From positions 3,761 to 67,760 of the forward strand of contig CAZFZU010000006.1 of NCBI GenBank assembly GCA_964523615.1: a stretch of DNA of 64,000 nt, read 5' to 3'. Position numbers and translations under genes: made by a program. Below the pieces are notes generated by a model. The model was given only the letters and a program-made list of their open reading frames with translations, was not told the origin of the DNA and ran no database searches. Each line of letters starts with the position of its first letter. Position 1 is the first letter of the stretch. Positions 1 to 49,282 of this stretch are shown in pieces. The stretch comes from an uncultured Eubacteriales bacterium. Lineage in GTDB: Bacteria; Acidobacteriota; Aminicenantia; Aminicenantales; Saccharicenantaceae.

Positions 1-518
1 GTCGGGGTGAGCTGGTCGAGCGTCTTCTCCTTGAGGTCGCGGCCGACGACCGAGATGATGCGGTCCATAATGCTGGACATCTTGTCGCGGGGCAGCCAGA
101 TCTCGCCCTTGTGGATGCCGCGGACGGCCTCGGGCAGCTGGGTCGAGGCGTCGTTGAGGTCGAAATAGCCGCGGGCCCCGGCGTTGATGAGGTTGACGAT
201 CTCCTCGTGGGCCGGGATGCTGCCGAGCAGGAGGAGCTCCGACCGGCCCTGGGTCTTGGAGATCTCGCGGATGGCCTTGCAGATCTCCCTCAGGTTGGGC
301 AGGGCTTCCATGTGGGCGAAGAGGATGACCTGGGGCTTGAGCTTCTTGATCGAGTCGATGAACGACTCGATGGTGTTCTTCTCGATGTTGAGGATCTCCA
401 GGTCCGGATCCGCCTCGAGGGCTCTGAGGATCCCGGCGAGGATGATGTCGGACGGGCAGAAGACGAGCAAAGTGATCTTCTGCGATCCGGCGGTCACGGG
501 AGCTTTCTTTTTCTCCAT
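1..518 (-). CDS. NarL/LuxR-family transcriptional regulator with atypical receiver domain (3' end truncated by window edge)
   Basis: Hand-translated open frame from ATG 518, absent from the ORF track because there is no stop in the window: MEKKKAPVTAGSQKITLLVFCPSDII...KPQVILFAHMEA...AGARGYFDLN...GIHKGEIWLPRDKM...LDQLTPT. REC-like fold followed by 'LTP', the start of a LuxR HTH. Confidence 0.8.
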   Translation of the reverse strand, partial: MEKKKAPVTAGSQKITLLVFCPSDIILAGILRALEADPDLEILNIEKNTIESFIDSIKKLKPQVILFAHMEALPNLREICKAIREISKTQGRSELLLLGSIPAHEEIVNLINAGARGYFDLNDASTQLPEAVRGIHKGEIWLPRDKMSSIMDRIISVVGRDLKEKTLDQLTP

Positions 519-581: not shown

Positions 582-610
582 ATCATAGTCAATCCCCGCG
601 GGCATGTCAA
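582..610 (-). promoter_or_regulatory. sigma70-like promoter for the LuxR-family gene
   Basis: Minus strand TTGACA-17 nt-TATGAT. Confidence 0.7.
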
Positions 611-643
611 GCCGGGGGGGTGAGAGGGGGTGAGACCGCCGTC

Positions 644-1042
644 CTACGCCGGCGGCAGGCTGTTCGGGTGGAGGCGGAAGCCGCGGTCGAGGCGGACGAC
701 CACGAACTGCTGGCGGTCGTTCTTCTCCTCGAAGCGGACGTAGACGACGGCGCCGGAGAGCACCAGGCGCAGCGGGCTCTCGAGGATGAGGGTGCGGGGG
801 ATGTCGAGGAAGAGGGTCAGCCGGGAGTCGATGGTCAAGCGGGCCTTGAGCCGGAGGGAGACCTCCTGGGCGCTGATGCCGCAGACGGCGGTCCGCTCCT
901 CGAACTTCCGCCCGGCCGCGTCGAGGCCCTTGACCAAGGCCGGCAGCGACAGCTCGAAGGAGCGCTCGCGCTTCCCGTTCCGCGGCGCGGCCGGGGAGGG
1001 CGGGGCCTGGAGGGATTTGACCATGTCCATCTCGTCACGCAT
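644..1042 (-). CDS. PilZ-like domain protein (degenerate c-di-GMP motifs)
   Basis: KRERSFELSLP...CGISAQE...LVLSGAVVYVR...VVVRL follows the PilZ beta-barrel pattern; paralog of 1167-1532. Confidence 0.6.
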   Translation of the reverse strand: MRDEMDMVKSLQAPPSPAAPRNGKRERSFELSLPALVKGLDAAGRKFEERTAVCGISAQEVSLRLKARLTIDSRLTLFLDIPRTLILESPLRLVLSGAVVYVRFEEKNDRQQFVVVRLDRGFRLHPNSLPPA

Positions 1043-1166: not shown

Positions 1167-1532
1167 TCACGCGGCGTCCGCCTGGATGAGGTACCGGGAT
1201 TCCAGACGGAGGGCGACCTGAGAGGCCCGGTCCTCGCCCTCGACCGGGTCGACGTCGACGATGGTCCCCTTGACGACCAGGCGGAGGCTGCGGCCCTCGC
1301 CCAGCTTGGGGGGCAAGACGATGGCCAGCTTCAGCCGGGAGCCCAGGGAGACGGGGTTCCGCAGCGGGAAGAGGGCGCCCTGGTGGCTCATGAAGGCCAG
1401 GGTCGTCTCCTCGTGGAAGAACGCGCCGTCCGGATCGGGCCCCTCGACGGTCATGGGCAGGGAGAGCTTGAAGCCCCGCTCGGGCGGACGGTGCCGGACG
1501 GGCCGGGAAGCCCACGCGGTCCTGCTCGACAT
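1167..1532 (-). CDS. PilZ-like domain protein (degenerate c-di-GMP motifs)
   Basis: Start chosen at ATG 1532 after a purine-rich RBS (AAAGGAAAAGGA). RPPERGFKLSLP...FMSHQG...LVVKGTIVDV...VALRL. Confidence 0.6.
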   Translation of the reverse strand: MSSRTAWASRPVRHRPPERGFKLSLPMTVEGPDPDGAFFHEETTLAFMSHQGALFPLRNPVSLGSRLKLAIVLPPKLGEGRSLRLVVKGTIVDVDPVEGEDRASQVALRLESRYLIQADAA

Positions 1533-1688: not shown

Positions 1689-3143
1689 GTGAACGACCAG
1701 GACCGGCAGGTGAAGAGCATCACGCCCAAGAGCGAGGATTTCTCGCGCTGGTATCAGGAGATCGTCCAGAAGGCCGAGCTGGCCGACTACACCCCGATGA
1801 AGGGCATGATGGTCATCCGGCCGTACGGCTACGCGGTCTGGGAGAACGTCCGGGACGCCCTCGACCGCCGCATCAAGGCGACCGGCCACGTCAACGCCTA
1901 TTTCCCGCTGTTCATCCCCGAGAGCTTCCTCAAGAAGGAGGCCGAGCACGTCGAGGGCTTCTCGCCCGAGGTCGCCTGGGTGACGGTCGGCGGGAAGGAG
2001 GAGCTGGAGGAGCGGCTGGCCGTCCGGCCGACCTCAGAGGCCATCATCGGGCACATGTACGCCAAGTGGGTCAAGTCCTGGCGCGACCTGCCCGTCCTCG
2101 TCAACCAGTGGGCCAACATCGTCCGCTGGGAGAAGGTCACCCGGCCGTTCCTGCGGACGACGGAGTTCCTCTGGCAGGAGGGCCACACCTGCCACGAGAC
2201 GGCCGAGGAAGGCGAGGCCGAGACGCTGCGCATCCTCGATCTCTACCGGGACGTCTGCGAGTCGGAGCTGGCCATCCCCGTGCTGGCCGGACGCAAGTCG
2301 CTGTCCGAGAAGTTCGCCGGCGCCTCCATGACCTACGCCCTCGAGGCCCTGATGTCCGACGGCAAGGCCCTGCAGATGGGCACCTCGCACAATCTGGGCC
2401 AGCATTTTTCCAAGGCCTTCGACATCAAGTTCGAGGACCGCAACCAGACCCTCCAATACGTCTGGCAGACGTCCTGGGGCATGACGACGCGGACGATCGG
2501 GGCCCTGATCATGGTCCACGGCGACGACTCGGGCCTGCGTTTCCCGCCCCGCGTCGCGCCCGTCCAGGCCGTGGTCGTGCCCATCTCCGTCGGCAACTGG
2601 AAGGAGACCGTCCTGCCGGCCGCCGAAGGCGTCGTCCGGGACCTTCGCGCGGCCGGCCTGCGCGTCGCGATCGACGCCCGCGAGGAGGCCACGCCGGGCT
2701 GGAAGTTCGCCGAATACGAGATGCGCGGGGTGCCGCTGCGGATCGAGATCGGGCCGCGCGACGTCAAGGCCGGCCAAGCCGTCCTGGTCCGCCGCGACCT
2801 CAAGACCAAGGAGGCCGCGCCGCTGGCCTCGTTGGCGGCCCGCGTCCCGGCCCTGCTCGACGCCATCCAGGCCGAGCTCTTGGCCCAGGCCCGGGCCTTC
2901 CTCGAGGCCAATATCCGCGACGCCTCCGATTACGAGGCCTTCAAGGCCATCCTGGAGAACGAGCGTGGCTTCGTCCGGGCGCCCTGGTGCGGCGGCGAGG
3001 CCTGCGAGAGCCGGATCAAGGCCGAGACCATGGCCACGATCCGGGTCATCCCGCTCGACGAGGCCGAAGCGAGGACGGAGCGCCCCTGCGTCGCCTGCGG
3101 CGCCGCGGGCCAGGCGCTGGCCTACTTCGCCCGATCCTACTGA
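1689..3143 (+). CDS. proS: Proline--tRNA ligase (archaeal/eukaryote-type ProRS)
   Basis: FSRWYQEIVQKAELADY, RPTSE, FLRTTEFLWQEGHT, LQMGTSH motifs; C-terminal Cys-rich domain and terminal Tyr (FARSY). Confidence 0.97.
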   Translation: MNDQDRQVKSITPKSEDFSRWYQEIVQKAELADYTPMKGMMVIRPYGYAVWENVRDALDRRIKATGHVNAYFPLFIPESFLKKEAEHVEGFSPEVAWVTVGGKEELEERLAVRPTSEAIIGHMYAKWVKSWRDLPVLVNQWANIVRWEKVTRPFLRTTEFLWQEGHTCHETAEEGEAETLRILDLYRDVCESELAIPVLAGRKSLSEKFAGASMTYALEALMSDGKALQMGTSHNLGQHFSKAFDIKFEDRNQTLQYVWQTSWGMTTRTIGALIMVHGDDSGLRFPPRVAPVQAVVVPISVGNWKETVLPAAEGVVRDLRAAGLRVAIDAREEATPGWKFAEYEMRGVPLRIEIGPRDVKAGQAVLVRRDLKTKEAAPLASLAARVPALLDAIQAELLAQARAFLEANIRDASDYEAFKAILENERGFVRAPWCGGEACESRIKAETMATIRVIPLDEAEARTERPCVACGAAGQALAYFARSY

Positions 3144-3810: not shown

Positions 3811-4356
3811 TCAGTCCTTCTCGCCGTAATACCGGACCTTGGGGGGCTTCTTGGGGTCCGAACCGAAAAAGAACAGCCACTTGTCGTGGCTCTCCTGGTC
3901 GTTCCAGATCTTGACCGACGTGTTCGTCGAGGTGCTGACGACGCCGAGGACCTGCGGGTTCTTGATGGCCGGCAGGACCCGTTCGGGGGCGATCAGGACC
4001 TCGGCGGCCGCTTCCTTGCCGCCGGGGACCCGGCCCGAGGCCAGGACGACGTTCCACTCGCCGTCGGGGCTGAACGGGTCCCGGTAGAGGCGCCGGAGGC
4101 ACTTCTTCTCGAGAAGCTCCTTGAGGCTGGCCGGGAACTTGCCGGGATTCTTCTGGACGAACAGGCGGACGGCCTCGGCGTACTGCCCGCCGCGGAAGAT
4201 GAGCTCCTCTTCCTTCTCGCGCTGGACCTCGGTCTGCCAGACCGGCAGGGCCGTGAGCAGGGCCAGGCTGATGACGAGCACGGCCAGGGCCAGGATGATC
4301 AGGACGTAGCCGGGCCGGCCGGCCGGCCCGTCACCAGGTGTTGTAAGGGGAGCCAT
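3811..4356 (-). CDS. Type II secretion pseudopilin-like protein (lacks Glu5, GspK-like)
   Basis: Prepilin-like site RPG/YVLII followed by a hydrophobic helix; QREKEEELIFRG; LRRLYRDP. Confidence 0.7.
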   Translation of the reverse strand: MAPLTTPGDGPAGRPGYVLIILALAVLVISLALLTALPVWQTEVQREKEEELIFRGGQYAEAVRLFVQKNPGKFPASLKELLEKKCLRRLYRDPFSPDGEWNVVLASGRVPGGKEAAAEVLIAPERVLPAIKNPQVLGVVSTSTNTSVKIWNDQESHDKWLFFFGSDPKKPPKVRYYGEKD

Positions 4357-4777
4357 CGATGGGCGACTTGCCTTCCGAGCCGGACTTGACGTCGACGATC
4401 CCCGGGACCTCGTTGAGCATGGGGTCCTCGGGGGAGGGGAGCTCGCGGACCTCGACCCAGGTCGTGGACTGGTTGGTCATCGGATCGACCGGGATGGCCC
4501 GGAGGTAGCTGTCCTGGACCAGGGCCTGGAGCCCGGCCGGGTACTTGCCCTTGTCCATGGCGTACTGGTCGATGAGCTTGCGCAGGATGAACAGGTTCTC
4601 CTTGAGGACGGCTTCCTTGGCCTTGACCGTCGAGGCCTTGTAGTTGGGCAGGGCGATGCCCAGGAGGAGGCCGATGATGCCCAGGACGATGATGAGCTCG
4701 ATGAGGGTGAAGCCGCGCTCACCAGTCCTTGTAGAAGGTCCCGTCGAGGGCCTTGGCCGGGCTTTTGGTGTAGACAT
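4331..4777 (-). CDS. GspG-like pseudopilin
   Basis: RG/FTLIEL N-methylation motif; GKYP..L..LV...YLRAIPVDP. Confidence 0.85.
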   Translation of the reverse strand: MSTPKARPRPSTGPSTRTGERGFTLIELIIVLGIIGLLLGIALPNYKASTVKAKEAVLKENLFILRKLIDQYAMDKGKYPAGLQALVQDSYLRAIPVDPMTNQSTTWVEVRELPSPEDPMLNEVPGIVDVKSGSEGKSPIDGSPYNTW

Positions 4778-5204
4778 CGTAGACGTTCTCCTCTCCCCAG
4801 ACGTCGTCGTCGGGATCGTCCTGGTAGGATCGCAGGCCCCAGTCGAAGGAGTTGGTCATGGGGTCGATGGGGACGCGGCGGAGGAAGCGGACGACCCGCT
4901 TGCGGCCCGAGCCCTGGCCCTTGGCGTCCTTGTCCTCGACCTCGACGCCTTTGACCAGGTCCTCGAGGGTGGGCGGATAGCCCTCGGTGTCCTTGTCGAA
5001 CTCGAACTTCTTCTCGTCGGCCAGCTTCTTCCAGGCGTCGATGGCCTCGCGCATCTGGCGCAGGGCCCGGGACAGCTGGACCTCGTTGTCGCGCTTGACG
5101 GCCATCTTGCCGAACGGCAGGGCGGCCATGGCCAGGACGGCGACGATCGAGAGGGTGATGATCATCTCGATCAGGGTGAAGCCGCGGGCGTTCCGATGGC
5201 GCAC
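4719..5204 (-). CDS. GspG-like pseudopilin
   Basis: RG/FTLIEM motif; GYPPTLEDLV; FLRRVPIDP; NVYDVYTKS. Confidence 0.85.
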   Translation of the reverse strand: MRHRNARGFTLIEMIITLSIVAVLAMAALPFGKMAVKRDNEVQLSRALRQMREAIDAWKKLADEKKFEFDKDTEGYPPTLEDLVKGVEVEDKDAKGQGSGRKRVVRFLRRVPIDPMTNSFDWGLRSYQDDPDDDVWGEENVYDVYTKSPAKALDGTFYKDW

Positions 5205-21992: not shown

Positions 21993-24008
21993 TCAGGTCT
22001 TGGCGAGAACGTCCCGGCCGATCATGCCGGCCGGCTTCTCGGCGTCGAAGAGGCTCAGCACGGAGGCCGTCAAGTCCTCCAGGGCCGGGGCCTCGGCCGT
22101 GAACTTCCTGTTCGCGAAGGCGATGCCCGGCAGGACGTCCGGGGCCGACATGTGGTCGCCGCTCCAGCGCTGGGTGTTGTCCTCGAGGACTTCGCGCGGG
22201 AAGCCGCCGAGCGGCGACTGCCAGGAGATGCGGTAGCCCGGGGCGAAGCCCAGGACGATGTCCGGGGCCTGCTCCAGGTTGGGGCCGCGGTAGGCCTCTT
22301 TGGCGACGAAGGCCCTGCGGACGACCTGATCGCCCGTGACGGGGTCCCGCAAGGCCTCGAGCCGGCGGACGATCTCCCGGACGAGATTGTCCTTGTCGGC
22401 TCCCGGCTCCACGGCGCCCTGGCCCTCGCGCCCGCGCTCGTTGATGTAGAGGCCGTTGAGGCCCATGCCGTAGGCCCGCGTCTTCGACCAGTCCGTGTTG
22501 TCGAAGTAGGCCGACTCCTCCTGCTTCCAGGGCCGTTTCAACCGGTGGAAACCCTCGCGGACGAGCCAGGTGTTGAGGTTGAAGCCGCGGCGGAAGGTGT
22601 TGAAGCCGTGGTCCGACATGACCAGGACGACCGTGTCCTTGTCGGCTTTTTTCAAGGCCAGGTCGAGGGCCCGGTCCATTTCGCCGTAGGTCCGGGCGAT
22701 GACGTCGCCGAAGCGGGCGGCCAGCTTTTCGTCGTAGGCCGGGTGGCCGGGATCGGTCAGGCGCCAGAACATGTGCTGGCGTTGGTCGGCGTTGGAAAAG
22801 TAGTAGAACAGCAGCCCCGCGTCGAGGCGGCCGAGCTCGTATTCGAGCATGGCCATGCTCTCCTCGTAGACGAGGTTGTCGAGATGGAGGAACTCCTCCT
22901 CGTCGAGAACGCCGTTCTCCAGGGCGCTCGTGTCGGCCGGCAGCCCCTTGGTGAAATAGGGGCCGAAGCGCCTCTCGAGGTCCCGGGCGTAGGACTCCGG
23001 CGTGGACAGGGGCAGGGCCGGGCGGGCCGGGTCCATGTGGATGGGCGAGACGTAGAGCTTGAACTTGGGCCGGACCTCCTTGAGGTAGAACAGGCAGATG
23101 CCGTGGACGCTCTGGGTCGGCATGAGCCCGAAGCGGACCCTCTGCCAGCCGCTCCACTCGCCCTGGCGGAGGACGAACTCGCGGCCCTGGAGGACGATCT
23201 TGGCCGCGGCGTGCTCGGGGTCGAGGAAGACCTGGAAGGGCACGGACGCCTCCGGGGAGCCGACCTTGAAGGCGTTCGTCGGGCCCTTGAGCTCGGCCTC
23301 GACCCGGTCGCCGACGACGAAGACGTCGTAGACCCGGCCGCCGCCGCCGGCCTCCTGGACGACGGACGCCGAGGCGTTCGTGTAATAGCTGAAGATGCCG
23401 TACGAGCCCTTGAGGTCGGGCGTGTTCATGCCGGCGAGCGTCCGCTGCTCCGACTCGACGGGCGGGTAGTTCGAGGGCATCTTGAAGACGGTCGCCGGGA
23501 CGCCGCGGTCCTCGAGGACCTGCCAGAAGGCCCGGCCCTTGCGGAGGTTCCGGACCTGGCCGCCCGAGAGGGGGATGAGCGTCTTGCCGAGGCGGATGGT
23601 CTTCCCGCCGCCGGTCGTCTCGGTGGCCGAGAAGACGGGGACGTAGGTCTTGGGATCGCGGTTGAAGAAATCGAAGATGGCGTGTCCGCCGGGGTCCATG
23701 CCGGTGATGAAGTTGGACCAGGCCACCGGCGTCTGGGGCGGCAGGCTGGTGCCGAGCGGCCGGAAGTCCCCGCCCCGCTCGAGGAGCCGCCGGAAGGCCG
23801 GCAGGCGGCCCTCGTCGATCCAGCGTTTCGTCAGGACGGGGTCGAGGCCGTCGAGACCGAGCACGATGACCTTCTTCCCGTCCCGGGACGGGCCGAACGA
23901 GCGGGGGGAGAGCCGGGCCGCTCCGCCCAGCCCCAGGGCCGCCGAGGCGGCCACGCCGGCCTTGAGGAATTCACGCCGCGAGAGCCGCGCGCGCCCGTGT
24001 CCGCTCAT
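21993..24008 (-). CDS. Alkaline phosphatase superfamily (COG3379-like phosphodiesterase) protein, Tat signal
   Basis: ATGA overlap at 24005-24008; SRREFLK; GLDG, PPQT(nucleophile)PVAW, DQRQH, SDHG, GDH. Confidence 0.9.
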   Translation of the reverse strand: MSGHGRARLSRREFLKAGVAASAALGLGGAARLSPRSFGPSRDGKKVIVLGLDGLDPVLTKRWIDEGRLPAFRRLLERGGDFRPLGTSLPPQTPVAWSNFITGMDPGGHAIFDFFNRDPKTYVPVFSATETTGGGKTIRLGKTLIPLSGGQVRNLRKGRAFWQVLEDRGVPATVFKMPSNYPPVESEQRTLAGMNTPDLKGSYGIFSYYTNASASVVQEAGGGGRVYDVFVVGDRVEAELKGPTNAFKVGSPEASVPFQVFLDPEHAAAKIVLQGREFVLRQGEWSGWQRVRFGLMPTQSVHGICLFYLKEVRPKFKLYVSPIHMDPARPALPLSTPESYARDLERRFGPYFTKGLPADTSALENGVLDEEEFLHLDNLVYEESMAMLEYELGRLDAGLLFYYFSNADQRQHMFWRLTDPGHPAYDEKLAARFGDVIARTYGEMDRALDLALKKADKDTVVLVMSDHGFNTFRRGFNLNTWLVREGFHRLKRPWKQEESAYFDNTDWSKTRAYGMGLNGLYINERGREGQGAVEPGADKDNLVREIVRRLEALRDPVTGDQVVRRAFVAKEAYRGPNLEQAPDIVLGFAPGYRISWQSPLGGFPREVLEDNTQRWSGDHMSAPDVLPGIAFANRKFTAEAPALEDLTASVLSLFDAEKPAGMIGRDVLAKT

Positions 24009-26131
24009 GCTTTCTTTCCCTTCGCTTCCCGCGAGAGGCCGGCGACGTCGACCAGGCCCCGGCCGTCCATATGGGCCGGCGGGGTCAGGCCGAAGAGCTC
24101 CAGGACGGTCGGGGCCAGGTCCATGATGGAGGGCTGGTCGGTCCTGAGGCGCAGGCTCGAGAACAGCACGCCCGGGACCAGGGCCGGGTCGATGCAGTGG
24201 TCGCCGCTCCAGGCCTTGACGTTGTCCTCGATGACCGTGTCGTCGACGATGCCCGTGACGCCGTCCCAGGAGGCCCGATATCCCTCGTTGTACCCGATGA
24301 TGAGGTCCGGGGCGTTGTCCCGGTACGGCCCGGCGTAGACGGCGTCGCGGTCGTAGACGCGGGTGACGGCCGGGGGGCCGCTCGGCCCGTCGCGCAGGGC
24401 CTCGAGCTTGCGGGCCAGCTCGGCCTTGAGGGCCGCGGCTTCGGCGCCGGGGGCGACGGTGCCGCGCGCCTCCCGGTCCCTGAGGTTGAGGTAGATGCCG
24501 CCGAGCCCCAGGCCGTAGGCCCGGGTCCGCCCCCAGTCGACGTCCTTGAACCATTCGCCGCTCGTCTCCCGTCCCTCGTTCAGGGCCAGGTAGCCGTTCT
24601 TCCGGAGCCAGGAGTTGAGGTTGACCCCCCGGCGGAAAGACTTGAAGCCATGGTCGGACATGACGAACAGGGCGTCGCGGGGGCCGAGCCCCTCGGCGAC
24701 CCGGCCGACGAGCCCGTCCATCTTCTTATAGAGATCCTCGACGACGGCCGCGCTCATCCGGGCCGGACCGGCCTTGAGGGCCGGATGGGCTTTGTCGAGG
24801 TAGCGGAAGAACATGTGCTGGACGCTGTCGGTCGTCTCGAAGACGATCGCGACCAGGCCCTTCGAAGTCTTGGCCAGGGCGTTGCGGAGCATGGCCTCCC
24901 AGGCCTCGTGGTTGTCGTAGGTCAGCTCGAGGAAGGCCTTCTCGTCGAGGGCGCCCTCGTTGAGGGCCCAGGTGTCGTTGGCCTCGCCCAGGGTGATGTA
25001 ACGGCCCAGGAGCTTGGCCAGGTAGACCGAGTAGATGAACGGATGGGAGATGGGCAGGGCGGGCTTCTCGGGGTCGATGTTGAGGGGCGTGACGTACATC
25101 TCGAACGGGGGCTCGAGCGAGGCGATGCGGAAGCGGCAGATGCCCCGGACCTTGACCCCCAGGCCGGCCCGGAAAACGACCGGCGTCCACGGGCTGAAGG
25201 TCTTCTCTTTGAGGAAGAACGGCTTCTCGCGGCCGACGGCGACGCGGGCCCCGCCGGCCGCCCGGTCGATGGCCACGGTCAGGGGGACGCGGATCTCCTC
25301 GGGGACCCTGAGCAGCGAGTTCTCCGGGCCCGCGAGCTCGGTCCGGATGACGTCGCCCTCGCGGCGGACCAGGACGGCCACGCCGCCCTCGTGCTTGCGG
25401 ACCTTCTCGGCGTCCTCGGTGAAGAAGGCGAACGTCCCCTGGCTGCCTTTGAGGTCGGGGGCGCACATGCCGGAGAGCAGGTGGCCCTTGAACTTCTCCG
25501 GCGGGAAGGTGATGGGCACGCGCAGGACCGTGGCCGGCACGCCCTTCTCGCCGAGGACCTTCCAGAACGGCACGCTCCGGCGCATCCCCCGGACCTCGGG
25601 CTTGGAGAGCGGGACGAGATACTTGCCCAGGGCCAAGGTCCGCTTGGGCCGGCCGATGCGGGCCGAGGACAGGTCCGGGAGATAGGTCCGGGGGTCGCGG
25701 CTGAGGAAGTCGAAGATGTTGTGCTTGGAGGGCTCCGAGCCGGTCATAAAGGACGACCAGGCGACGGGGGAGATGGCCGGGGTCGTCGTCCGCAGGCGGG
25801 CGTAGGCCCCGTCCTTGCGCAGTCGGGCCAGGTTCGGGAGCTTGCCCTCGGCCATGAACTTCTCGGCCAGCGTCGGTTCCAAGCCGTCGAGCCCGAGGAT
25901 GACGACGCGGTCGACCCGGCTGCGGCCGAGGGCCCGCCGGCCGCGGACCGTCCGCCACAGGAAGCGGAACGGCCAGGACAGGAACGAGAACAGGGCCAGG
26001 ACGAAGGTCAGGAAGAGGACCAGGAAGGAGGACAGGAAGGCGAAGCCGGCCCCAGGCCCGATGTAGCCGGCGAGAGGGGAGGCCAGGGCGAGGAGGGCGG
26101 CCGCCGCGAGGATCGTGCCCGTCCGCTTCAT
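24005..26131 (-). CDS. Alkaline phosphatase superfamily protein with signal peptide, YIGPG motif and TM anchor
   Basis: TGATG overlap at 26129-26133; MKRTGTILAAAALLALASPLAG-YIGPGAGFAF-TM-basic stretch; GLDG, PAISPVAW, DSVQH, SDHG, GDH. Confidence 0.9.
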   Translation of the reverse strand: MKRTGTILAAAALLALASPLAGYIGPGAGFAFLSSFLVLFLTFVLALFSFLSWPFRFLWRTVRGRRALGRSRVDRVVILGLDGLEPTLAEKFMAEGKLPNLARLRKDGAYARLRTTTPAISPVAWSSFMTGSEPSKHNIFDFLSRDPRTYLPDLSSARIGRPKRTLALGKYLVPLSKPEVRGMRRSVPFWKVLGEKGVPATVLRVPITFPPEKFKGHLLSGMCAPDLKGSQGTFAFFTEDAEKVRKHEGGVAVLVRREGDVIRTELAGPENSLLRVPEEIRVPLTVAIDRAAGGARVAVGREKPFFLKEKTFSPWTPVVFRAGLGVKVRGICRFRIASLEPPFEMYVTPLNIDPEKPALPISHPFIYSVYLAKLLGRYITLGEANDTWALNEGALDEKAFLELTYDNHEAWEAMLRNALAKTSKGLVAIVFETTDSVQHMFFRYLDKAHPALKAGPARMSAAVVEDLYKKMDGLVGRVAEGLGPRDALFVMSDHGFKSFRRGVNLNSWLRKNGYLALNEGRETSGEWFKDVDWGRTRAYGLGLGGIYLNLRDREARGTVAPGAEAAALKAELARKLEALRDGPSGPPAVTRVYDRDAVYAGPYRDNAPDLIIGYNEGYRASWDGVTGIVDDTVIEDNVKAWSGDHCIDPALVPGVLFSSLRLRTDQPSIMDLAPTVLELFGLTPPAHMDGRGLVDVAGLSREAKGKKA

Positions 26132-27423
26132 CAGTAGTTCTTGAGGATGATCGGGGCCAGGTCGGCGATGCGGAGGTCGTCGCCGTGGTCCTCGACCGAC
26201 CAGAAGAAGGCGTCGTCCCAGGTGTGCATGCCTTGGAGGCCGGAGCGGCCGAAGACCTCCTTCCGGCGGACCGAGCCCTTCATGTCGAAGCCGGGCTCGC
26301 CCACGACGACGAGGTCCGGGCCCTTGGCGGCGTGCGGACCGTGGTAGACCTCCTCGTTGAAGAAGACCTTCTTGACGACGCGCCGGCCCTCGTAGGTCAG
26401 CTGCTCGAGCTTGCCGGCGATCTCCTGGCGCAGGGCCCGGCGGGCGCTCCGCGCGATCGTGCCCTTGGGGAAGCGGTCCTTGAGGTGGATGTAGATCCGG
26501 TTGGGGTCGAGAGCGAAGGCCTTGGTCCGGCCGTGGATGTCGCCGAGCCCCGTCGGCTCGGGCTTGAGGAAACGGAGGTAGCCGTTCTGCTCGAGCCAAG
26601 CGTTGAGATAGACCTCCTGGACGATGCCCGTGAAGCCGTGGTCGGACAGGATGTAGAAACCGGCGTAGGTGTTGGTGAGCTTGTGGTAGGCGGCGACGAT
26701 CTTGCCGATGAGACGGTCGATGTGGCGGTAGAAGTCGAGAAAGCGCTCATGGGAGGGGTGGCCGGGGTCCTCGTAGGCGCGCCACAGGAAGTGGTGGAGA
26801 CGGTCGGTCCCCGTGACGACGTACTCGAAGTAGTCCCAGTCCCCTTCCCAGAAGTGGTTGAGGGCTTTTTGCCCCCCGGCCATGGTCTTGGTCAGCTCCT
26901 GCCAGAGGACCTCGGGGCTCTCGCGGCATTTGAGGATGTCGACGTCGATCTGGTAGCCCATCTGCTCGAGGGCGGCCCGGTAGGTCGTCGGCCAGACGGC
27001 CTTGGCCAGCTCCAGGGCCACGAAACCGGACACGAGGACGCCCTCGATCTCGCGGGCCGGGTAGGTCGAGGGCTGGTTGATGACGATGCTCCGGCGGCCC
27101 TTGGCGCCCAGGCGGTCCCAGAGGGTGGGGGCCTTGACGTCGAGGTAATTGGGGAAGCGGATGTCGTAGGATCGGGGCTTGAAGTCGGTGAAGCCGAAGA
27201 TCCCATGGCTGCCCGAGTCCGTCCCGGTCATGAAATCCGTCCAGGACACGGCCGAGATCTCGGGCAGGCTGGCCTTCATCCGGTGGAGCCGGCCGATGTC
27301 CATGAGGCGGGCCATGGTCGACATGATCCCCCGGCGGGCCAGCTCGGCGATCATGCCGTAGGGCACGCCGTCGAGGCCGATGACGCAGGCTTTTTCAGTC
27401 TTTTTTCGCTTCGCTACGGCCAT
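26131..27423 (-). CDS. Alkaline phosphatase superfamily protein, no export signal
   Basis: GLDG, PEISAVSW, DRLHH, SDHG, GMH; lacks the long central insert of the two paralogs. Confidence 0.9.
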   Translation of the reverse strand: MAVAKRKKTEKACVIGLDGVPYGMIAELARRGIMSTMARLMDIGRLHRMKASLPEISAVSWTDFMTGTDSGSHGIFGFTDFKPRSYDIRFPNYLDVKAPTLWDRLGAKGRRSIVINQPSTYPAREIEGVLVSGFVALELAKAVWPTTYRAALEQMGYQIDVDILKCRESPEVLWQELTKTMAGGQKALNHFWEGDWDYFEYVVTGTDRLHHFLWRAYEDPGHPSHERFLDFYRHIDRLIGKIVAAYHKLTNTYAGFYILSDHGFTGIVQEVYLNAWLEQNGYLRFLKPEPTGLGDIHGRTKAFALDPNRIYIHLKDRFPKGTIARSARRALRQEIAGKLEQLTYEGRRVVKKVFFNEEVYHGPHAAKGPDLVVVGEPGFDMKGSVRRKEVFGRSGLQGMHTWDDAFFWSVEDHGDDLRIADLAPIILKNY

Positions 27424-27453
27424 GGCGCGGCTTCTTCCGGCTTGGAAATCAGG

Positions 27454-27482
27454 ATTTTACCTCAATCCGGCCGTCCGGTCAA
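27454..27482 (-). promoter_or_regulatory. Promoter of the AlkP operon
   Basis: TTGACC-17 nt-TAAAAT. Confidence 0.75.
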
Positions 27483-31693: not shown

Positions 31694-33175
31694 TCAGGGG
31701 GCGGCTTCGGCCAGGAAGTAGTCGGCGACCTCGATGCCGTATTTGGCCGGGTCGAGGGCCGTGGCGATCGTCCGGGTGAAACGGCCGGTCGCGGGGTCCC
31801 GCTCGGTCAGATCGACGACCGGGCCGTCGACCTTGCGGCCGTCGGCGCCGGCGACGATCTTGACGGCCGGCCGCATGAGGAAGCGAGCTTCGGGATTGAC
31901 GTCGCGGACGAGGCCGATCTCGCCCGTCGTCAGGGCCACCAGCGTGCCGATGGGGAAGACCCCCATCATGTTGACGAAGGCCTTGAGGATGACGGGATTG
32001 AACTCCGTGCCGCTCTGGTCGAGCATGACGCTCAGGGCCTCGGCCCGGCTGAAGTCCTTGCTCCGGTAGACGCGCCTGGTGGTGATGGCGTCGAAGACGT
32101 CGACGACCTTGACGATCTTGCTGAACAGGTTGACGTCGTCCTTCTTGAAGTAGCGGGGATAGCCGCTGAGGTCCTCCTTGATGTGGTGCTCCAAGGCGAC
32201 GTGGATGGCCCGCAGGGGCAGCCGGCGGAACTCCTTGAGCAGGACGAGCTTCTCGGCCCCGTGGAAGGGATGCTTCTCCATGACCTCCCGTTCGGCGTCG
32301 GTCAGCCGGCCCGGCTTGTTGAGGATCTCGAGCGGGGTCCGGGTCTTGCCGAGGTCGTGGAAGAAGGCGGCCATGCCCAGGTCGACGAGCTCGGTCCGGC
32401 TCAGTCCCAGGCGGCGGCCGAGGGCCGTGGCCAGAAGGCAGACGTTGACGGAATGATTGAGGGTGTACTCGTCGTGGTTCTTGATGTTGGTCAGGCCCTG
32501 GATGAAGGCCTCGTCCTCGACGATGTGGTTGTAAATGGACTGCATGAGCCGGCGGGTCGTGCTGATCTTGATGGGCTCGTTGCGCTGGTCCCGGGCGAAG
32601 GATTCCTTGAGGTGGACGATGCTCAGGAAGAACATCCGGGCCGCGTTCTGGTGGAGGCCCTGGACGGCCTCCTCGGCCGTGATCTTCTCGAGGTCGACGT
32701 GGACGACGCCGGCCGCGTCGAGATCGGCCTCCAGCCGGGCGAAGCCGGCCTCGTCCTTCTTGTCGCGCTTGGCGAACAAGGACATGAAACGCAGGAGCTC
32801 GTCCCGGTCCAGGCCGGCCTTGAAGACCACGGCCTCGACGCCCCGGGTCCGGAACTCCTCGAGCACCGATTTGAAGATGCCGTAGGTGCCGACGCCGAAC
32901 TTGAGGCGCACGCCGTTGAGCATGAGCGCGCCGTGGCGGGAGCGGAGCTCGACGTCGCCCGCGTCGGCCAGGGCGGCGGCCAGGCTCTCGTGGAGCAGCC
33001 CCCCCTGGGTGACGAAAGCGTCGTTGGCGATGTCGTAGATCTTGGCGATCTTGTCGACGATATGGAAACGGATGAGCAGCTCGACCCCGCTCTTTTGGAA
33101 GGCCCGGGACTCCGGGGCGCGGGGAGCCGCCGGCCTGATCTCGGGCGCGGTCTTGACCGGGTCCTTCTCGTCCAT
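31694..33175 (-). CDS. HD-GYP domain protein (putative c-di-GMP phosphodiesterase)
   Basis: EYTLNHSVNV, HDLGK, HHIKEDLSGYP, VVDVFDAIT..R.YR. Confidence 0.9.
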   Translation of the reverse strand: MDEKDPVKTAPEIRPAAPRAPESRAFQKSGVELLIRFHIVDKIAKIYDIANDAFVTQGGLLHESLAAALADAGDVELRSRHGALMLNGVRLKFGVGTYGIFKSVLEEFRTRGVEAVVFKAGLDRDELLRFMSLFAKRDKKDEAGFARLEADLDAAGVVHVDLEKITAEEAVQGLHQNAARMFFLSIVHLKESFARDQRNEPIKISTTRRLMQSIYNHIVEDEAFIQGLTNIKNHDEYTLNHSVNVCLLATALGRRLGLSRTELVDLGMAAFFHDLGKTRTPLEILNKPGRLTDAEREVMEKHPFHGAEKLVLLKEFRRLPLRAIHVALEHHIKEDLSGYPRYFKKDDVNLFSKIVKVVDVFDAITTRRVYRSKDFSRAEALSVMLDQSGTEFNPVILKAFVNMMGVFPIGTLVALTTGEIGLVRDVNPEARFLMRPAVKIVAGADGRKVDGPVVDLTERDPATGRFTRTIATALDPAKYGIEVADYFLAEAAP

Positions 33176-33184
33176 GTCCGTTCC

Positions 33185-35047
33185 CTAGTCCTTGTCCGGG
33201 CCCGCCGTGGGCATGCGCGTCAGGGCCGCCGTGCAGGCCTCGCGGACGGCCCGGGTCCGGCCGATGGCGCCCTTCTGGAGGAGGCCCGAGGCCTCGGCGG
33301 TGGCCATGCTCTCCAGGCCGGCGACGGCGGCCAGGCGCATCTCGAGGGCCCTGCGCGATCCGAATAGGGGCGCTTTCTTCAAGATCCGGCCCAGGAAGGC
33401 CAGGGCCTCGGGGGACCGGGTCCGGCCGAGGAAGGCCAGGATGGCTGCCTTCTCTTTGAGGCTCTTGTCGCGGAATCCGGGGGCCGAGGCCTCGCGGACG
33501 ATCTGTTGGACGCGGGCCCCGCCCTCGCCGGGATCGAGCTTCATGGCCGCCTGGATGCGGACCTCCTCGTCGGGGTCCTTGAGGAAGCCGAGGAGGATGC
33601 GGTTGGCCATCTCGTCCCCGACCTGCCCGAGGACGTGGACGACCTCGAGCTTGATGTCGCGGTTCTGGAAGTTCAGGAAGGTCGACAGGTGGGGGAGGCC
33701 CTTGCGCTCGGGGAGCCGGGCCAGGATCCCGACCAGCTCGCGGGCCAGGTCGGGCCGGGCCGGGTCGGCCAAGGCCGCCAACAACCCGGGCTGGGAGGCG
33801 CCGGTCCGCTCGATGAAACCGAGGACCTTGTGCCGGGCCTCGCCGTCGGGGGCGATGTCGTGGAGCCCGGCGGCCAATCCCAGGGCCGGCGGGCCGAGGA
33901 GCCCGAAGAAACCGAGCAGCGACTCCCAGTCGAGGGCCTTCTTCTTCTCGAGGAGGGCCTTGACGGCTTCGACCGTCTTGGGGCTGACGACGCGGCGGAG
34001 GAAGGCGTCGAGCGGGGCCGTCTTGGCGGGATCGCCGGCCAGGTGCCGGCCGAGCTCCTGGACCTTCTGGATGATGAGGACCGGGACCTGGAAGTCGCCG
34101 CGCTGGAGCCGGTCGAAATTGTATTCGAGCAGGGCGTCGAGGCTGGCTTGGCGGCCGGCCTCGTCCTCCTCGAGATAGACGATCTCGACCATGAGGTTGA
34201 TGTACTCTTCCTCGGCCGAGATGGTCCGGTTCGCGCGGACCATCCGCTCGAGGGACTGGAGCTCGGCCTCGGTCAGGGTGGGATCCATGCCCGCGGCCGG
34301 GCTCCTCTCGCCCGCCGTCCGCTCCTGGTCCGCGGCCTCCACAGGAACGGGGGCCGGATCCGGGCCGGCGCCGTCCGCCCGTTCGGCGGCCCGGCGGACC
34401 TCCTCGCGGTCGGGGCCGTCGAGCTCGATGCGGCCCTGGACGAGCTTGGACGCGTCGACCCGGACCTCGATCCTTTCCCCGGCCAGGTCCTCGGGCAGGC
34501 CGGGGACGTCCTGGCGACGGATGTCCTCGCCGCGCCGCTCGGCCAGGATGCGGCTCTCGAGGTATTCGTCGGGCGCGTAATACTGGATGTTGGGGAAGTC
34601 GCGCTCCCAGAGGGCGGCCACGATGTCGCAGTCCTCGGCCGGCTTCTGGGCCTCGGCCTTGACCAGCTCGAGGAACTCCAGGACCTCCGGGCGGTCCAGG
34701 CCTTCGTAGAAATAGAGGATGTGCAGCCCGTCCTTGAAGAAGAAGAACGGCAGGCTCTTGATGGCCACCTCGTCGGAATAGACCGGCTTGCCCTCGTAGA
34801 CGAACGAGAACTCCTCGATGGCGACCTGGAGCTTCTGGTGGGCGGCCAGGAAAGCCGTGAATTTAGCCGTGAGCTGGTCGACGAAGTTGAGGACCGTGGC
34901 GTGGTCGGTCGGGAAGATCTTCATGGCCGAGACGGTGTTGGCCAGGTAATGAAGGAGGTCCTTGACCCTCTCGGTGCGGGCGGGGTCGGACGGCGGTTCG
35001 ACGGACGTCTCGGCGGCTCGGGGCGTCGGATCCTGAGGACTGGTCAT
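33185..35047 (-). CDS. HEAT-repeat protein
   Basis: C-terminal repeats (DIKLEVVHVLG, DPDEEVRIQAA, EMRLAAVAGL, AVREAC); coupled to the HD-GYP gene. Confidence 0.8.
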   Translation of the reverse strand: MTSPQDPTPRAAETSVEPPSDPARTERVKDLLHYLANTVSAMKIFPTDHATVLNFVDQLTAKFTAFLAAHQKLQVAIEEFSFVYEGKPVYSDEVAIKSLPFFFFKDGLHILYFYEGLDRPEVLEFLELVKAEAQKPAEDCDIVAALWERDFPNIQYYAPDEYLESRILAERRGEDIRRQDVPGLPEDLAGERIEVRVDASKLVQGRIELDGPDREEVRRAAERADGAGPDPAPVPVEAADQERTAGERSPAAGMDPTLTEAELQSLERMVRANRTISAEEEYINLMVEIVYLEEDEAGRQASLDALLEYNFDRLQRGDFQVPVLIIQKVQELGRHLAGDPAKTAPLDAFLRRVVSPKTVEAVKALLEKKKALDWESLLGFFGLLGPPALGLAAGLHDIAPDGEARHKVLGFIERTGASQPGLLAALADPARPDLARELVGILARLPERKGLPHLSTFLNFQNRDIKLEVVHVLGQVGDEMANRILLGFLKDPDEEVRIQAAMKLDPGEGGARVQQIVREASAPGFRDKSLKEKAAILAFLGRTRSPEALAFLGRILKKAPLFGSRRALEMRLAAVAGLESMATAEASGLLQKGAIGRTRAVREACTAALTRMPTAGPDKD

Positions 35048-35094
35048 GAGCGGCCACCACTCAGTTTAGTCAAAAAGCGGGTCCCGTCAACGGA

Positions 35095-40487: not shown

Positions 40488-40501
<14 letters not shown>
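40428..40501 (+). tRNA. tRNA-Arg (ACG), no encoded CCA
   Basis: Acceptor GCGCCCG/CGGGCGC, D arm GCTC/GAGC, anticodon loop CT-ACG-AA, T arm GGGTG-TTCGAGT-CACCC; U27-C43 mismatch. Confidence 0.95.
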
Positions 40502-41882
<1,381 letters not shown>

Positions 41883-41911
41883 GAGGGGACTCCTTTGCGC
41901 GCCGGCGCCGG

Positions 41912-42601
41912 CTACCGGGGCGGCTCGGCCGGCCGTTCGACGAGCCAATGGCGGACGAACCGGTAGGGGATGTTGAGGGCCGGGACGCAGAGCAGGATGA
42001 CGATGACGATGTCCAGGCGGTTAGCGACGGCGAAGCCGAAGACGCCGAGGTAGACGAGGCCCCGGAAATCTCCGCTCGCCCCCGAGCCCGTCTGGACCTT
42101 CTTGTACTCGCGTTCGAGATAGTAGAGGACCATCTGGAGCATGTAGGCGGCCAGGCCGAACAGGCTCAGGAAATAGAAGCCCAGCCGGCCCGATTGGATG
42201 TAATAGCCGGTGACCATGGCCCCGAGGACGAAGAAATCGGTGATCCGGTCGAGATAGAGGTCGAGGTAGGCCCCGAACCGGGTGCACATGTCCCGCGACC
42301 GGGCCAGCATGCCGTCGGCCCCGTCGAACAGGGTGCCGGCGTAGATGAGCAGGCCCGCGGCGATGAAGCTCCGATGGGTGCCGCCGAGGAAGGCCGCGGC
42401 GCCGGCCAGGCTCAGGACGAAAGCCGCCACGGTCAGGTGGTTCGGACGGAGCTTCAGGCGCATGGCCGCCCGGACGATGAGGGCGGCGACGGGGCGGTTG
42501 ACGAGCCGGTCGGCTTGGACGATCCGGGGCAGACGGGCGGGCAGGGGCGGCTTGAGGGCCGCTTCCAGGTCGAAGGCGTTCTTGTCCTCGGACGTTTCCA
42601 T
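41912..42601 (-). CDS. CDP-alcohol phosphotransferase family protein
   Basis: PNHLT; DGADGMLAR.....RFGAYLDLYLD signature. Confidence 0.92.
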   Translation of the reverse strand: METSEDKNAFDLEAALKPPLPARLPRIVQADRLVNRPVAALIVRAAMRLKLRPNHLTVAAFVLSLAGAAAFLGGTHRSFIAAGLLIYAGTLFDGADGMLARSRDMCTRFGAYLDLYLDRITDFFVLGAMVTGYYIQSGRLGFYFLSLFGLAAYMLQMVLYYLEREYKKVQTGSGASGDFRGLVYLGVFGFAVANRLDIVIVILLCVPALNIPYRFVRHWLVERPAEPPR

Positions 42602-42658
42602 GTTCGAGCTCTTCGCGATGAGGTCGAGGCGTTCGAGCCCCGCGAACGACGAAGGACG

Positions 42659-42728
42659 ATTCTAAGCCCCGCGGCAGGCGGTGTCAACTTTCCGGCGGCT
42701 TGCCGGTATCCCGCCTCTCTCTTATAAT
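42659..42728. promoter_or_regulatory. Back-to-back divergent promoters of the inositol module
   Basis: Minus strand: TTGACA(42687-42682)-17-TAGAAT(42664-42659). Plus strand: TTGCCG(42700-42705)-17-TATAAT(42723-42728). Confidence 0.75.
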
Positions 42729-42735
42729 GAGCCCC

Positions 42736-43524
42736 ATGCGCCATCCCCTTACGCCCGCGAGGGCTTCGCTGAGCCCTTGGTCCCCGGCCCGTTGGGGCAA
42801 GGGCTTGGCCCGCCTCAATTTCCGGCGGGCCGGCGAATGCGCCGCCGTGCTCCGGTGGCTCGAGGCCGGGGCGGGGGAGCGGGTCCTCGATATCGGCAGT
42901 GGCGACGGCTATTACGACTGGCGCGTCAGCCGCTCGGGCGCCCGCGTCACCGGGATCGACCTCCACGAGAAGCGACTGGCCTTCGCCCGCCGGCATTACG
43001 CTGACGAACGAACGGAGTTCCTGACCATGGACGCCGAGCGGGCCGACTTCCCGCCCGGCTCGTTCGACAAGGCCATGAGCCTCTGCGTCATGGAGCATCT
43101 CGGCGACGACGAGAAGGTCCTGCGGAACGTGGCCCGGGCCCTCGTGCCGGGCGGGCGGTTCGTCTTCTCGGCCGACAGTCTGTCGAATCCCGGGCTCGGG
43201 CCCCATGAGAGGGAGCGGCACCGCGCCCGGTACGCCGTGCGGACGTTCTACACGCCGGAGGTCGTGCGGGCCAAGCTCGACCGGGCCGGTTTCGAGGTCG
43301 AGGCGACGGGCTTCGTCATGGACACGGCCTTCGACCTGGCCTTCGTCCGGATGTCCTGGGCCCTCGACCGGCTCCCGGGCCTCCTCGTCCCCGCCCGCGT
43401 GATCGGCTATCTCCTGCTCGGCGCCGCTTGGTCCGCGGTCACCGCCGCCCGGGGCCGGACGCTGCCGTCGGACGCGCCGGGCGGCCTGACCATCGTCGTC
43501 CGGGCCAGAAAGAAAAGCGCGTGA
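42736..43524 (+). CDS. Class I SAM-dependent methyltransferase
   Basis: VLDIGSGDG, GIDL, MDAE..DF..GSFD; start uncertain (42727 or 42736). Confidence 0.88.
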   Translation: MRHPLTPARASLSPWSPARWGKGLARLNFRRAGECAAVLRWLEAGAGERVLDIGSGDGYYDWRVSRSGARVTGIDLHEKRLAFARRHYADERTEFLTMDAERADFPPGSFDKAMSLCVMEHLGDDEKVLRNVARALVPGGRFVFSADSLSNPGLGPHERERHRARYAVRTFYTPEVVRAKLDRAGFEVEATGFVMDTAFDLAFVRMSWALDRLPGLLVPARVIGYLLLGAAWSAVTAARGRTLPSDAPGGLTIVVRARKKSA

Positions 43525-45272: not shown

Positions 45273-46801
45273 AGATCGGCGGGCGTTCGGTCCGCGAAGA
45301 CCGGGACACGACGGAGGTTTCGGCGATCGTCGACGGTTACCGCCTGTGGTACCGGGTGCCGCGATCGTACGCCGTCACCGATTCGGCCGATCCCTTCCTC
45401 GCGGCGGCCCTGTTCCCGGCCATGAGGCTGGGGCGGAAGATCGAGGTCGATCCGGCTCTGTCGGTGTCGCCGCGGCTGCTCGAGAACCTCCGCGCCCTTC
45501 AGGAGATCCATCACGTCTGGAATCCCCAGCTTCGGATCGTCCCCATCGAGGCCAGGACCGCGCCGGGCCGGGCCCTGCGCGACGGGGTCCTGTCCTTCTT
45601 CTCGGGCGGGGTCGACAGCTTGTACACGTTCCTGAAGCGCCAGGAAGAACTGACGCATCTCGTCCATATCCAGGGCTTCGATTTTTCCGCGGAGAGCGGG
45701 GACTCCGGGGCCTTGATCGCGGCGGACCTGACCGACCTGTCGCAGCTCGCCTTCAAGCTTCTGGCGCCGGCCAACGCGGTCCGGGCGTTCCTGAGATCCC
45801 GGCTGTCGCCGAAGACCCTGTCGGACTTGGCCGAATACCGGCGATCGGGGGAGGTCCCCGAGGGCCTGGAAGAGGCTCTGGCCGGGGACCTGAACAGGGT
45901 CCTGACGGAGGGGCCGATCTGGCAGGACCGGCGTTTCGCCGGGATCGCCCTCCGGCCGGAGACCCGGGAACTCCTGGCGGCGGGGCCGCCTCCCGAAGAC
46001 ACGGTCCGGCTCAACCGGCGACTTCTCGAAGACGCTTTTCCTCTGGAGATCTCGCGTCCGCGCGGCCGGTCCTTCGACATCGCCGTCGACCGGAACACCC
46101 GGTTCGTCGAGAACGCCGGGAAGACCCTGGTCCCGGTGGCGACGAATTATTTCTCCTTCGGCTACCGCTACAACTTGAGCCGGACCCTGACGCAGGGGAA
46201 TTCTTTGGCTTGCGTCGCCCTGCTCCTGGGATTCCCGCGCGTCTATATCCCGGGCGCCTATTCCTACGGCCAACTCATCCCCCTGGGGTCCCATCCGCTG
46301 ACGGACCCTCTCTGGTCGAACGGGAGCGTCGCGATCGTCCACGACGGGGCCGAGGTCCAACGGGTGGACAAGGTCGTCAAGATCGCCCGGAACAGGGATG
46401 CCCTGGCGAATCTGAGGGTCTGTTTCACCGATATGAACGTCAATTGCGGCCGGTGCTCCAAATGCCTGCGGACGATGATCCCGCTGGCCCTGCTCGACGC
46501 TCAGGCGCCCCCCTTTCCCCCCCTGCCTTCGCTCCGGAAGATCCGCCGGATGCGCCTGGCCAACGAGAACGAGCGGAAGTACTTCAAGGAGAATTTCGAC
46601 GCGTCTTTGGGCGCCGCGCGGCCGGAGCTCAGGCGCGCGCTGAGTTCCGTCCTCAGGCGGTACGAGCGGCGCCGGCTGCTCGAGGACATCGACGCCCAGC
46701 TGCTCGGCGGCTGGGTCAGGAAGGCCTACCGGCGGATCTTCGCGTCGGGCGAGCGACACGTCCGGATCGGCGCGACGCCGCCTGATGGCGGCACCCTATA
46801 G
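45269..46801 (+). CDS. PP-loop (adenine nucleotide alpha-hydrolase) protein with CGxCxKC motif and ~125-aa insertion
   Basis: ATGA overlap; FFSGGVDS; GSHP.TDPLWS; NCGRCSKCLRT. Confidence 0.7.
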   Translation: MKIGGRSVREDRDTTEVSAIVDGYRLWYRVPRSYAVTDSADPFLAAALFPAMRLGRKIEVDPALSVSPRLLENLRALQEIHHVWNPQLRIVPIEARTAPGRALRDGVLSFFSGGVDSLYTFLKRQEELTHLVHIQGFDFSAESGDSGALIAADLTDLSQLAFKLLAPANAVRAFLRSRLSPKTLSDLAEYRRSGEVPEGLEEALAGDLNRVLTEGPIWQDRRFAGIALRPETRELLAAGPPPEDTVRLNRRLLEDAFPLEISRPRGRSFDIAVDRNTRFVENAGKTLVPVATNYFSFGYRYNLSRTLTQGNSLACVALLLGFPRVYIPGAYSYGQLIPLGSHPLTDPLWSNGSVAIVHDGAEVQRVDKVVKIARNRDALANLRVCFTDMNVNCGRCSKCLRTMIPLALLDAQAPPFPPLPSLRKIRRMRLANENERKYFKENFDASLGAARPELRRALSSVLRRYERRRLLEDIDAQLLGGWVRKAYRRIFASGERHVRIGATPPDGGTL

Positions 46802-48037: not shown

Positions 48038-48201
48038 GCGGCTAGGGTATCCCTCGTCCGGAGGGGTGTCAAGGCTCCGGTCCGGTTTGACTCCGATCGT
48101 CCTGTTGGGGTATCATTCCGGCCGTAGAGAAACGGACCTTAACTGTCGGCGGACCTTGCGGTTAGGACGTCCGTCCGGAACCGATACAGGAAGCGGAGAC
48201 C

Positions 48202-49281: not shown

Positions 49282-49282
49282 G

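Follow-up and report, generated by a model that had tools for sequence, protein, structure and literature searches.

VpsT, an atypical Vibrio regulator of known structure (PDB 3KLN/3KLO), consists of a receiver-like domain, an extra helix, α6, and a GerE helix-turn-helix (HTH) domain, and it works without phosphorylation. The motif by which it binds cyclic di-GMP (c-di-GMP) is defined as W[F/L/M][T/S]R (PMC6237807), and mutation of I141 in VpsT, or of L137 in the related factor QstR, abolishes dimerisation (PMC3359988, PMC6237807). V. cholerae QstR has WLPR at this site; it is fully functional at low c-di-GMP and dimerises in E. coli without any signal, its R130A substitution has a mild effect (a 10-fold loss), and P129T, which exchanges the proline for threonine, renders it c-di-GMP-dependent (PMC6237807). 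BrpT of V. vulnificus likewise bears WLPR and is reported to act independently of c-di-GMP (PMC6237807); a later paper by the BrpT authors reports that its promoter binding needs no c-di-GMP (PMC6113621), and a review table gives a dissociation constant (Kd) for c-di-GMP of 135 µM for BrpT versus 3.2 µM for VpsT (PMC10519070). LiaR/VraR, DesR, NarL and DevR have a receiver followed by an HTH domain, with the acidic pair, phosphoacceptor Asp, switch Thr/Ser and Lys of phosphorylated receivers and with cognate kinases. Here we compare with these systems a LuxR-type regulator gene that lies at the start of a 64,000-nucleotide (nt) stretch of DNA, called the window below, from an uncultured Aminicenantes bacterium (assembly GCA_964523615.1, contig CAZFZU010000006.1, positions 3,761 to 67,760 of the forward strand).

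Our analysis suggests that this regulator is an orphan NarL/LuxR factor that cannot be phosphorylated, that would dimerise through α6 without high-affinity binding of c-di-GMP, and that would receive c-di-GMP input in trans through PilZ proteins encoded beside it. We give this reading about even odds (a probability of roughly 0.5). Neither atypical LuxR regulators nor the WLPR variant is new; we found no account of a LuxR pseudo-receiver with PilZ paralogs on either side, and our literature search returned no paper naming both Aminicenantes and c-di-GMP. The gene and its landmarks, with residues in window numbering (amino acids, aa), are as follows.

3–518, minus strand: N-terminal 172 of the 230 codons of the regulator coding sequence, assigned from its translation, full-length homologues, an AlphaFold2 (AF2) model and PDB sequence matches
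450–464, minus strand: VFCPS (aa 19–23), end of strand β1, with C21/P22 in place of the acidic pair (DD) in the alignments to LiaR 5hev and in alignment A1
312–326, minus strand: ILFAH (aa 65–69), end of strand β3, with A68 in place of the phosphoacceptor Asp
222–224, minus strand: G99, in place of the switch Thr/Ser
156–170, minus strand: GYFDL (aa 117–121), strand β5, with L121 in place of the conserved Lys
87–107, minus strand: GEIWLPR (aa 138–144), of which WLPR (W141, L142, P143, R144) takes up nt 87–98, at the α5/α6 junction
33–89, minus strand: predicted helix α6, R144 to about D162, RDKMSSIMDRIISVVGRD, 19 residues (AF2 helix 143–161 in the numbering of homologue P0004)

The coding sequence starts with an ATG at 516–518 and its reading frame exits past the start of the window. 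It is missing from the open reading frame (ORF) track of the initial annotation, as that annotation itself remarked, because the program omits ORFs that cross a window end. The translated fragment, MEKKKAPVTAGSQKITLLVFCPSDIIL...HKGEIWLPRDKMSSIMDRIISVVGRDLKEKTLDQLTP (MEKKK...LDQLTP), holds the pseudo-receiver domain, WLPR, helix α6 and the first linker residues (LTP); the GerE/LuxR HTH falls outside the window, past position 1. Full-length homologues (229–230 aa; for example P0001 and P0004) end in LTPTEFQVLRLIGQGKSNDEIAELMFISKNTVRSHIKSIYAKLDTHSRLQLALYAINSALF, which corresponds to Pfam GerE (PF00196; 74 bits in a full-length homologue). A homology search returned 963 relatives, of which the best 120 each reach 88% identity or more; the source databases name these homologues as Aminicenantes proteins. 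The family forms an isolated, tight clade: in a search of a representative library, one full-length representative scored 367 bits and the next hits, generic NarL relatives, about 100 bits, with no intermediate relatives there that would reveal the origin of WLPR. No NCBIfam model covers the family, and no equivalog cut-off was approached. The automatic label that the Joint Genome Institute (JGI) attaches to homologues, 'NarL family response regulator LiaR', was dismissed because the phosphoacceptor is absent.

The translation, the homologues, the PDB matches and the model all agree with the initial description of the product as a LuxR-type regulator with a pseudo-receiver. In phmmer searches against PDB sequences the regulator aligns end to end with LiaR/VraR, DevR, NarL and DesR, the best match of the full-length protein being LiaR/VraR 5hev (expect value, E, 4e-21). 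The AF2 model, which was built on an 81-sequence alignment and has a mean predicted local distance difference test score (pLDDT) of 81.9, shows a (βα)5 fold, the helix at 143–161 (P0004 numbering) and a four-helix HTH, and its best Foldseek matches belong to the NarL family, with VraR/LiaR first and ChrA, DesR, NarL, RcsB and EvgA also among them. A receiver fold with a C-terminal GerE/LuxR HTH of the NarL/FixJ class is accordingly indicated by AF2, Foldseek and Pfam GerE alike. LiaR/VraR, DesR, NarL and DevR thus share the domain order of the regulator and are its best sequence and fold matches, whereas none of their phosphorylation residues and no cognate kinase is found here. Pfam Response_reg fails to match either the fragment or the full-length regulator, even at E = 1.

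All five phosphorylation residues of the receiver are substituted in the alignment to LiaR/VraR and 72 NarL-type relatives. This bears out the loss of the acidic pair, the Asp and the Lys that the initial annotation had read in VFCPS, ILFAH and GYFDL, and G99 adds the loss of the Thr/Ser to it. Wherever the acceptor position could be read, across about 160 loci (80 species genomes and 80 divergent metagenome loci), it is occupied by A, T, I or S and never by D; VpsT, in contrast, keeps the Asp in its sequence. No kinase domain is encoded within ±10 kb of the regulator on six contigs. Because the receiver residues are replaced, the acceptor is never Asp and no kinase is encoded nearby, the predicted action of the regulator independently of phosphorylation, likewise part of the initial annotation, is well supported.

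The position of WLPR at nt 87–98 stands as originally reported, with the full GEIWLPR string reaching to nt 107, and the alignment with the VpsT motif, on which the initial annotation had made its reading depend, is exact. With the VpsT sequence taken from PDB chain 3kln, BLASTP placed HKGEIWLPR opposite LQDEMWLTR of VpsT (E 1e-16; 117 residues at the C-terminal end aligned with 33% identity, the similarity being confined to residues 116–226), so that WLPR is in register with WLTR. In the AF2 model α6 starts right after W-L-P, as in VpsT, and M151, at R+7, occupies in ungapped register the place of the dimer contact formed by VpsT I141 and QstR L137. A sixth helix with a hydrophobic residue at the dimer-contact position, as in VpsT, is therefore part of the predicted structure. 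All four residues, W, L, P and R, are invariant in 82 sequences of the regulator family. However, WLPR falls outside the definition W[F/L/M][T/S]R, since proline occupies position 3, where the VpsT motif has Thr or Ser. The regulator instead carries the exact WLPR that marks the proline variants QstR and BrpT, with M151 answering to QstR L137 as the hydrophobic α6 contact, and by analogy a signal-independent dimer would be expected of it as well. The comparison with QstR and BrpT, which are Vibrio-clade proteins, covered the motif and the α6 contact.

Nor is the regulator closer to VpsT or CsgD than to other proteins of the NarL family. The phmmer match to VpsT is limited to residues 115–226 of the regulator (E 2e-12), VpsT ranks only 24th to 30th among the Foldseek matches, and the NCBIfam CsgD model gives 60.7 bits against a cut-off of 250. 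Moreover, of the 72 nearest NarL-type relatives outside the family, 31 also have W-x-x-R at these columns, a frequency that is indicative only. The third residue in those 31 is E (15), G (6), D (4) or others, with S in one and P in none; the W-x-x-R relatives (alignment A1, proteins P0144–P0270) typically read GE.W[IV][EGD]R. Because W-x-x-R recurs so often in this set, usually with E, G or D as its third residue, it looks like a structural feature of an α6-bearing subfamily and not like the signature of a nucleotide site. The phosphoacceptor Asp is lost in 14 of the 31 relatives with W-x-x-R versus 6 of the 41 without it, and the combination may point to a broader group of regulators that work without phosphorylation and use α6 to dimerise. 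As judged from these alignments, WLPR at this site is neither a chance match nor specific to VpsT. The initial annotation had proposed a phosphorylation-independent c-di-GMP sensor; the independence holds up well, whereas sensing by the regulator itself is disfavoured by the proline at position 3, by the precedent of QstR and BrpT, by the frequency of W-x-x-R and by the lack of any special closeness to VpsT.

The genes that flank the regulator offer another possible entry for c-di-GMP. Three PilZ-type genes accompany it.

1167–1532, minus strand: pzA, 121 aa, PilZ-fold paralog (hhalign to the pzC family, probability 99.6%, E 2e-23)
644–1042, minus strand: pzB, 132 aa, PilZ-fold paralog (hhalign to the pzC family, probability 99.4%, E 5e-22)
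Beyond window position 1, minus strand: pzC, 135 aa, canonical PilZ (Pfam PF07238), located in related loci at L001:10801–11208 and L012:3714–4118

Only pzC carries canonical c-di-GMP motifs. Pfam PilZ matches it above the gathering score in 25 of 25 members, and RRxEWR and NISxxG hardly vary in it (78–79 of 79 sequences keep them); a profile search of the PDB gave a weak match to B. subtilis YpfA/MotI (E 0.13). Neither pzA nor pzB has a direct match in Pfam or NCBIfam, and their homology, which extends over the full length, was recognised by profile-profile comparison with pzC. The motifs of pzB are degenerate (KRER lies out of the RxxxR register, and GISAQE stands instead of D/NxSxxG), and pzA has RPPER in the window copy, which its family does not keep, and FMSHQG without the D/N; in both families the columns of RxxxR and D/NxSxxG vary or carry substitutions. 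Thus, of the description of the two upstream genes as PilZ-like, the fold is upheld, whereas nucleotide binding by their products is probably absent.

The gene order proS (divergent), pzA, pzB, regulator, pzC, coaE is shared by six identical-protein contigs and by 80 species genomes of GTDB, which come from 268 relatives found and are nearly all Aminicenantes. About 20 nt past the regulator stop codon comes pzC, which is encoded on the same strand without an intervening terminator and directly follows the regulator in nearly all 80 genomes. A divergent metagenome branch of 80 loci, 56–68% identical to the divergent homologue used as query (P0125), gives a finer picture: pzC follows the regulator in 65 of 65 evaluable loci, pzB is found upstream in 50 of 53 and pzA in 38 of 53, and in three loci (L098, L104 and L105) the regulator-pzC pair is kept with neither pzA nor pzB within 3 kb upstream. 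Since pzC is retained throughout and pzB and pzA less often, the regulator-pzC pair is the persistent core of the four-gene module, and pzA and pzB appear to be dispensable or encoded elsewhere. This pairing sets the regulator apart from QstR and BrpT, and we know of no PilZ neighbours of VpsT.

Measured against the window copy across 80 Aminicenantes species (L007–L086), median identity is 91.8% for the regulator, 82.3% for the prolyl-tRNA synthetase ProRS (1689–3143), 70.8% for pzC, about 60% for pzA and pzB and 58% for CoaE; by this measure the regulator is a near-invariant core gene of the Aminicenantes, among the best conserved of its surroundings. Mean column conservation is 0.845 in the receiver, 0.995 in GEIWLPR, 0.986 in α6, 1.0 in the linker and 0.978 in the HTH. 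The invariance from WLPR to α6 agrees with a strongly constrained interface, used either in self-association or in contact with a partner.

Upstream of the regulator, between it and pzB, lies a sigma-70 promoter close to consensus.

582–610, minus strand: predicted regulator promoter, TTGACA-17 nt-TATGAT, 11 of 12 consensus positions

The consensus scan found 3 sites where 0.1 were expected, and CTTGACA (at about -93) is kept in at least 90% of 109 anchored upstream regions, low-GC relatives included. Neither exact k-mers nor stacking anchored on the -35 element revealed a conserved block beyond the promoter hexamers, and hence no conserved operator. A perfect direct repeat between the pzB stop codon and the -35 element, TCTCACCCCC in two tandem copies (615–636, minus strand), was considered as an operator and dismissed, being restricted to close relatives (about 22 of 125 upstream regions). 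Transcription of the regulator looks constitutive. Contigs from four of four sludge metatranscriptome runs, 95–99% identical, cross the regulator-pzC junction; two of them begin 10–45 nt downstream of the predicted transcription start (near window position 575), and one covers pzA through pzC. These contigs agree with joint transcription of the regulator and pzC (and perhaps coaE), to which transcription from pzA-pzB adds some read-through.

How, then, might such a regulator be controlled? If the regulator behaves like QstR and BrpT, the proline variant would let α6, with M151 at the contact position, form an active dimer without high-affinity binding of c-di-GMP. Because dimerisation would be allowed in this way, DNA binding would need neither phosphorylation nor direct sensing of the nucleotide. 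Since transcription looks constitutive, control is probably post-translational, and because a canonical c-di-GMP receptor is always co-encoded, we propose that c-di-GMP input arrives in trans, the likeliest route being contact of the regulator with c-di-GMP-loaded pzC. pzA and pzB could act as non-binding competitors or adaptors. A fuller scheme, in which the four genes form a module that converts c-di-GMP into transcription, with pzC docking on the pseudo-receiver or α6 and thereby switching dimerisation or DNA binding, and pzA and pzB, blind to the nucleotide, competing or serving as adaptors, is offered as a tentative extension. A PilZ protein of P. aeruginosa reportedly interacts with HinK, a lead taken from a title cited in PMC12564702. 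That pair would resemble the proposed scheme in that a single-domain PilZ protein passes the c-di-GMP signal to a DNA-binding regulator by contact, although the regulator family is perhaps a different one and the interaction here is a proposed one.

Several observations weigh against this account. The whole S15-to-RF2 neighbourhood is syntenic in these genomes, so that gene order alone is no proof of coupling to PilZ. The contigs from the RNA runs may hold carried-over DNA or merge separate transcripts. WLPR was present in 80 of 80 loci of the metagenome set, a count that is biased because one scan pattern contained IWLPRD, and the 72 relatives behind the W-x-x-R frequencies were picked by similarity to the query. 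The analogy with QstR and BrpT is drawn from distant Vibrio proteins, and the effect of the proline could differ in the regulator given that distance (33% identity to VpsT over the 117 C-terminal residues). W and R, moreover, are both kept and invariant, which may leave room for weak or cooperative binding of c-di-GMP.

This last point leads to the direct alternative, that the regulator binds c-di-GMP at W141 and R144 at the base of α6 and that, as in VpsT, a nucleotide-bridged dimer switches on DNA binding. The exact register with WLTR, the fit of the invariant W, L and R to the motif, the predicted α6 with its hydrophobic residue at the place of I141 and the presence of c-di-GMP components (HD-GYP and PilZ proteins) in the organism are all consistent with it, and, as the P129T variant of QstR shows, such a pocket can otherwise remain competent (PMC6237807). 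Even so, we consider it quite improbable. The proline lies outside the motif, and QstR and BrpT are c-di-GMP-independent and the Kd of BrpT is near 135 µM (PMC6237807, PMC6113621, PMC10519070); the invariance of the proline throughout the family points to selection for the variant; the occurrence of W-x-x-R in 31 of the 72 nearest relatives speaks for a subfamily feature and not for a nucleotide site; and VpsT ranks low among the structural matches.

If direct sensing is set aside, the regulator could still be a constitutive factor of a housekeeping type with no link to c-di-GMP at all, its output set by expression level and the PilZ genes being mere neighbours or part of its regulon. A near-consensus promoter without a conserved operator, flanking genes that are themselves housekeeping (ProRS, CoaE, HU, PNPase and S15) within a block that is syntenic as a whole, and the dimerisation of QstR without a signal (PMC6237807) would all suit such a factor. 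We nevertheless regard it as rather unlikely, given that three paralogous PilZ genes bracket a single regulator, that the regulator-pzC pair persists in all 65 divergent loci, even where pzA or pzB has been lost, and that the two genes lie on the same strand about 20 nt apart, with no terminator and with RNA contigs spanning the junction. Some atypical response regulators bind metabolites or answer to protein partners, and the degenerate receiver might in the same way sense another small ligand or a partner other than a PilZ protein. Its purifying selection (mean conservation 0.845) despite the loss of phosphorylation, and the strong remodelling implied by the blindness of Pfam Response_reg to it, would be in keeping with this. 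The data point to no specific ligand site or partner, however, and no part of the protein is less conserved than the receiver, which makes this very improbable. Dimerisation through α6 without high-affinity nucleotide binding, with PilZ-mediated input in trans, accordingly remains the reading we prefer.

Farther along the window, two features had been put forward as functional context for the regulator.

31697–33184, minus strand: HD-GYP phosphodiesterase gene (HDLGK and HHIKEDLSGYP); about 230 aa at the N-terminus of its product are uncharacterised
46799–63999: glycan biosynthesis locus, with unusual ATP-grasp enzymes, one sugar-transfer-associated and two TupA-like

Both are present as the initial annotation stated, but at distances of 31 kb and more than 46 kb they were dismissed as linked context of the regulator. 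They do show that c-di-GMP turnover and polysaccharide genes, as predicted from their products, exist in the organism. A HEAT-repeat protein gene (33188–35065, minus strand) adjoins the HD-GYP gene, and the glycan locus also encodes an epimerase, a GFO/MocA oxidoreductase, a GT1 glycosyltransferase, a Polysacc_synt_3 flippase and a 960-aa protein with four PKD domains (51538–54417). Between a PCMT methyltransferase gene and the PNPase gene lie three small genes (3811–5204, minus strand), two with Pfam N_methyl and the third without a Pfam match, which on the evidence of their prepilin-type N-terminal methylation motifs are a putative pseudopilin-like cluster. At 21996–27456 (minus strand) there are three tandem genes with type I phosphodiesterase/nucleotide pyrophosphatase domains (PF01663), whose stop-to-stop ORFs overlap and whose starts are uncertain. 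Genes for a myo-inositol-1-phosphate synthase and a CDP-alcohol phosphatidyltransferase (minus strand) and for a nucleotidyltransferase-LPG_synthase_TM fusion (plus strand), all within 40491–45269, suggest synthesis of an inositol phospholipid or of an inositol-phosphate solute.

In summary, W-L-x-R at the α5/α6 junction is by itself no mark of a c-di-GMP site, which corrects a reading that is easily made, and exact WLPR is associated with the loss of c-di-GMP dependence in both cases that have been studied. The high conservation of the regulator and its constant pairing with a canonical PilZ receptor make it a candidate master regulator and a testable entry to c-di-GMP signalling in a lineage that lacks a cultured model. 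If the proposed route through PilZ is correct, the sensing that VpsT performs in cis with W-x-x-R would here be outsourced to a PilZ partner, which would govern a class-wide master regulator in this uncultured lineage.

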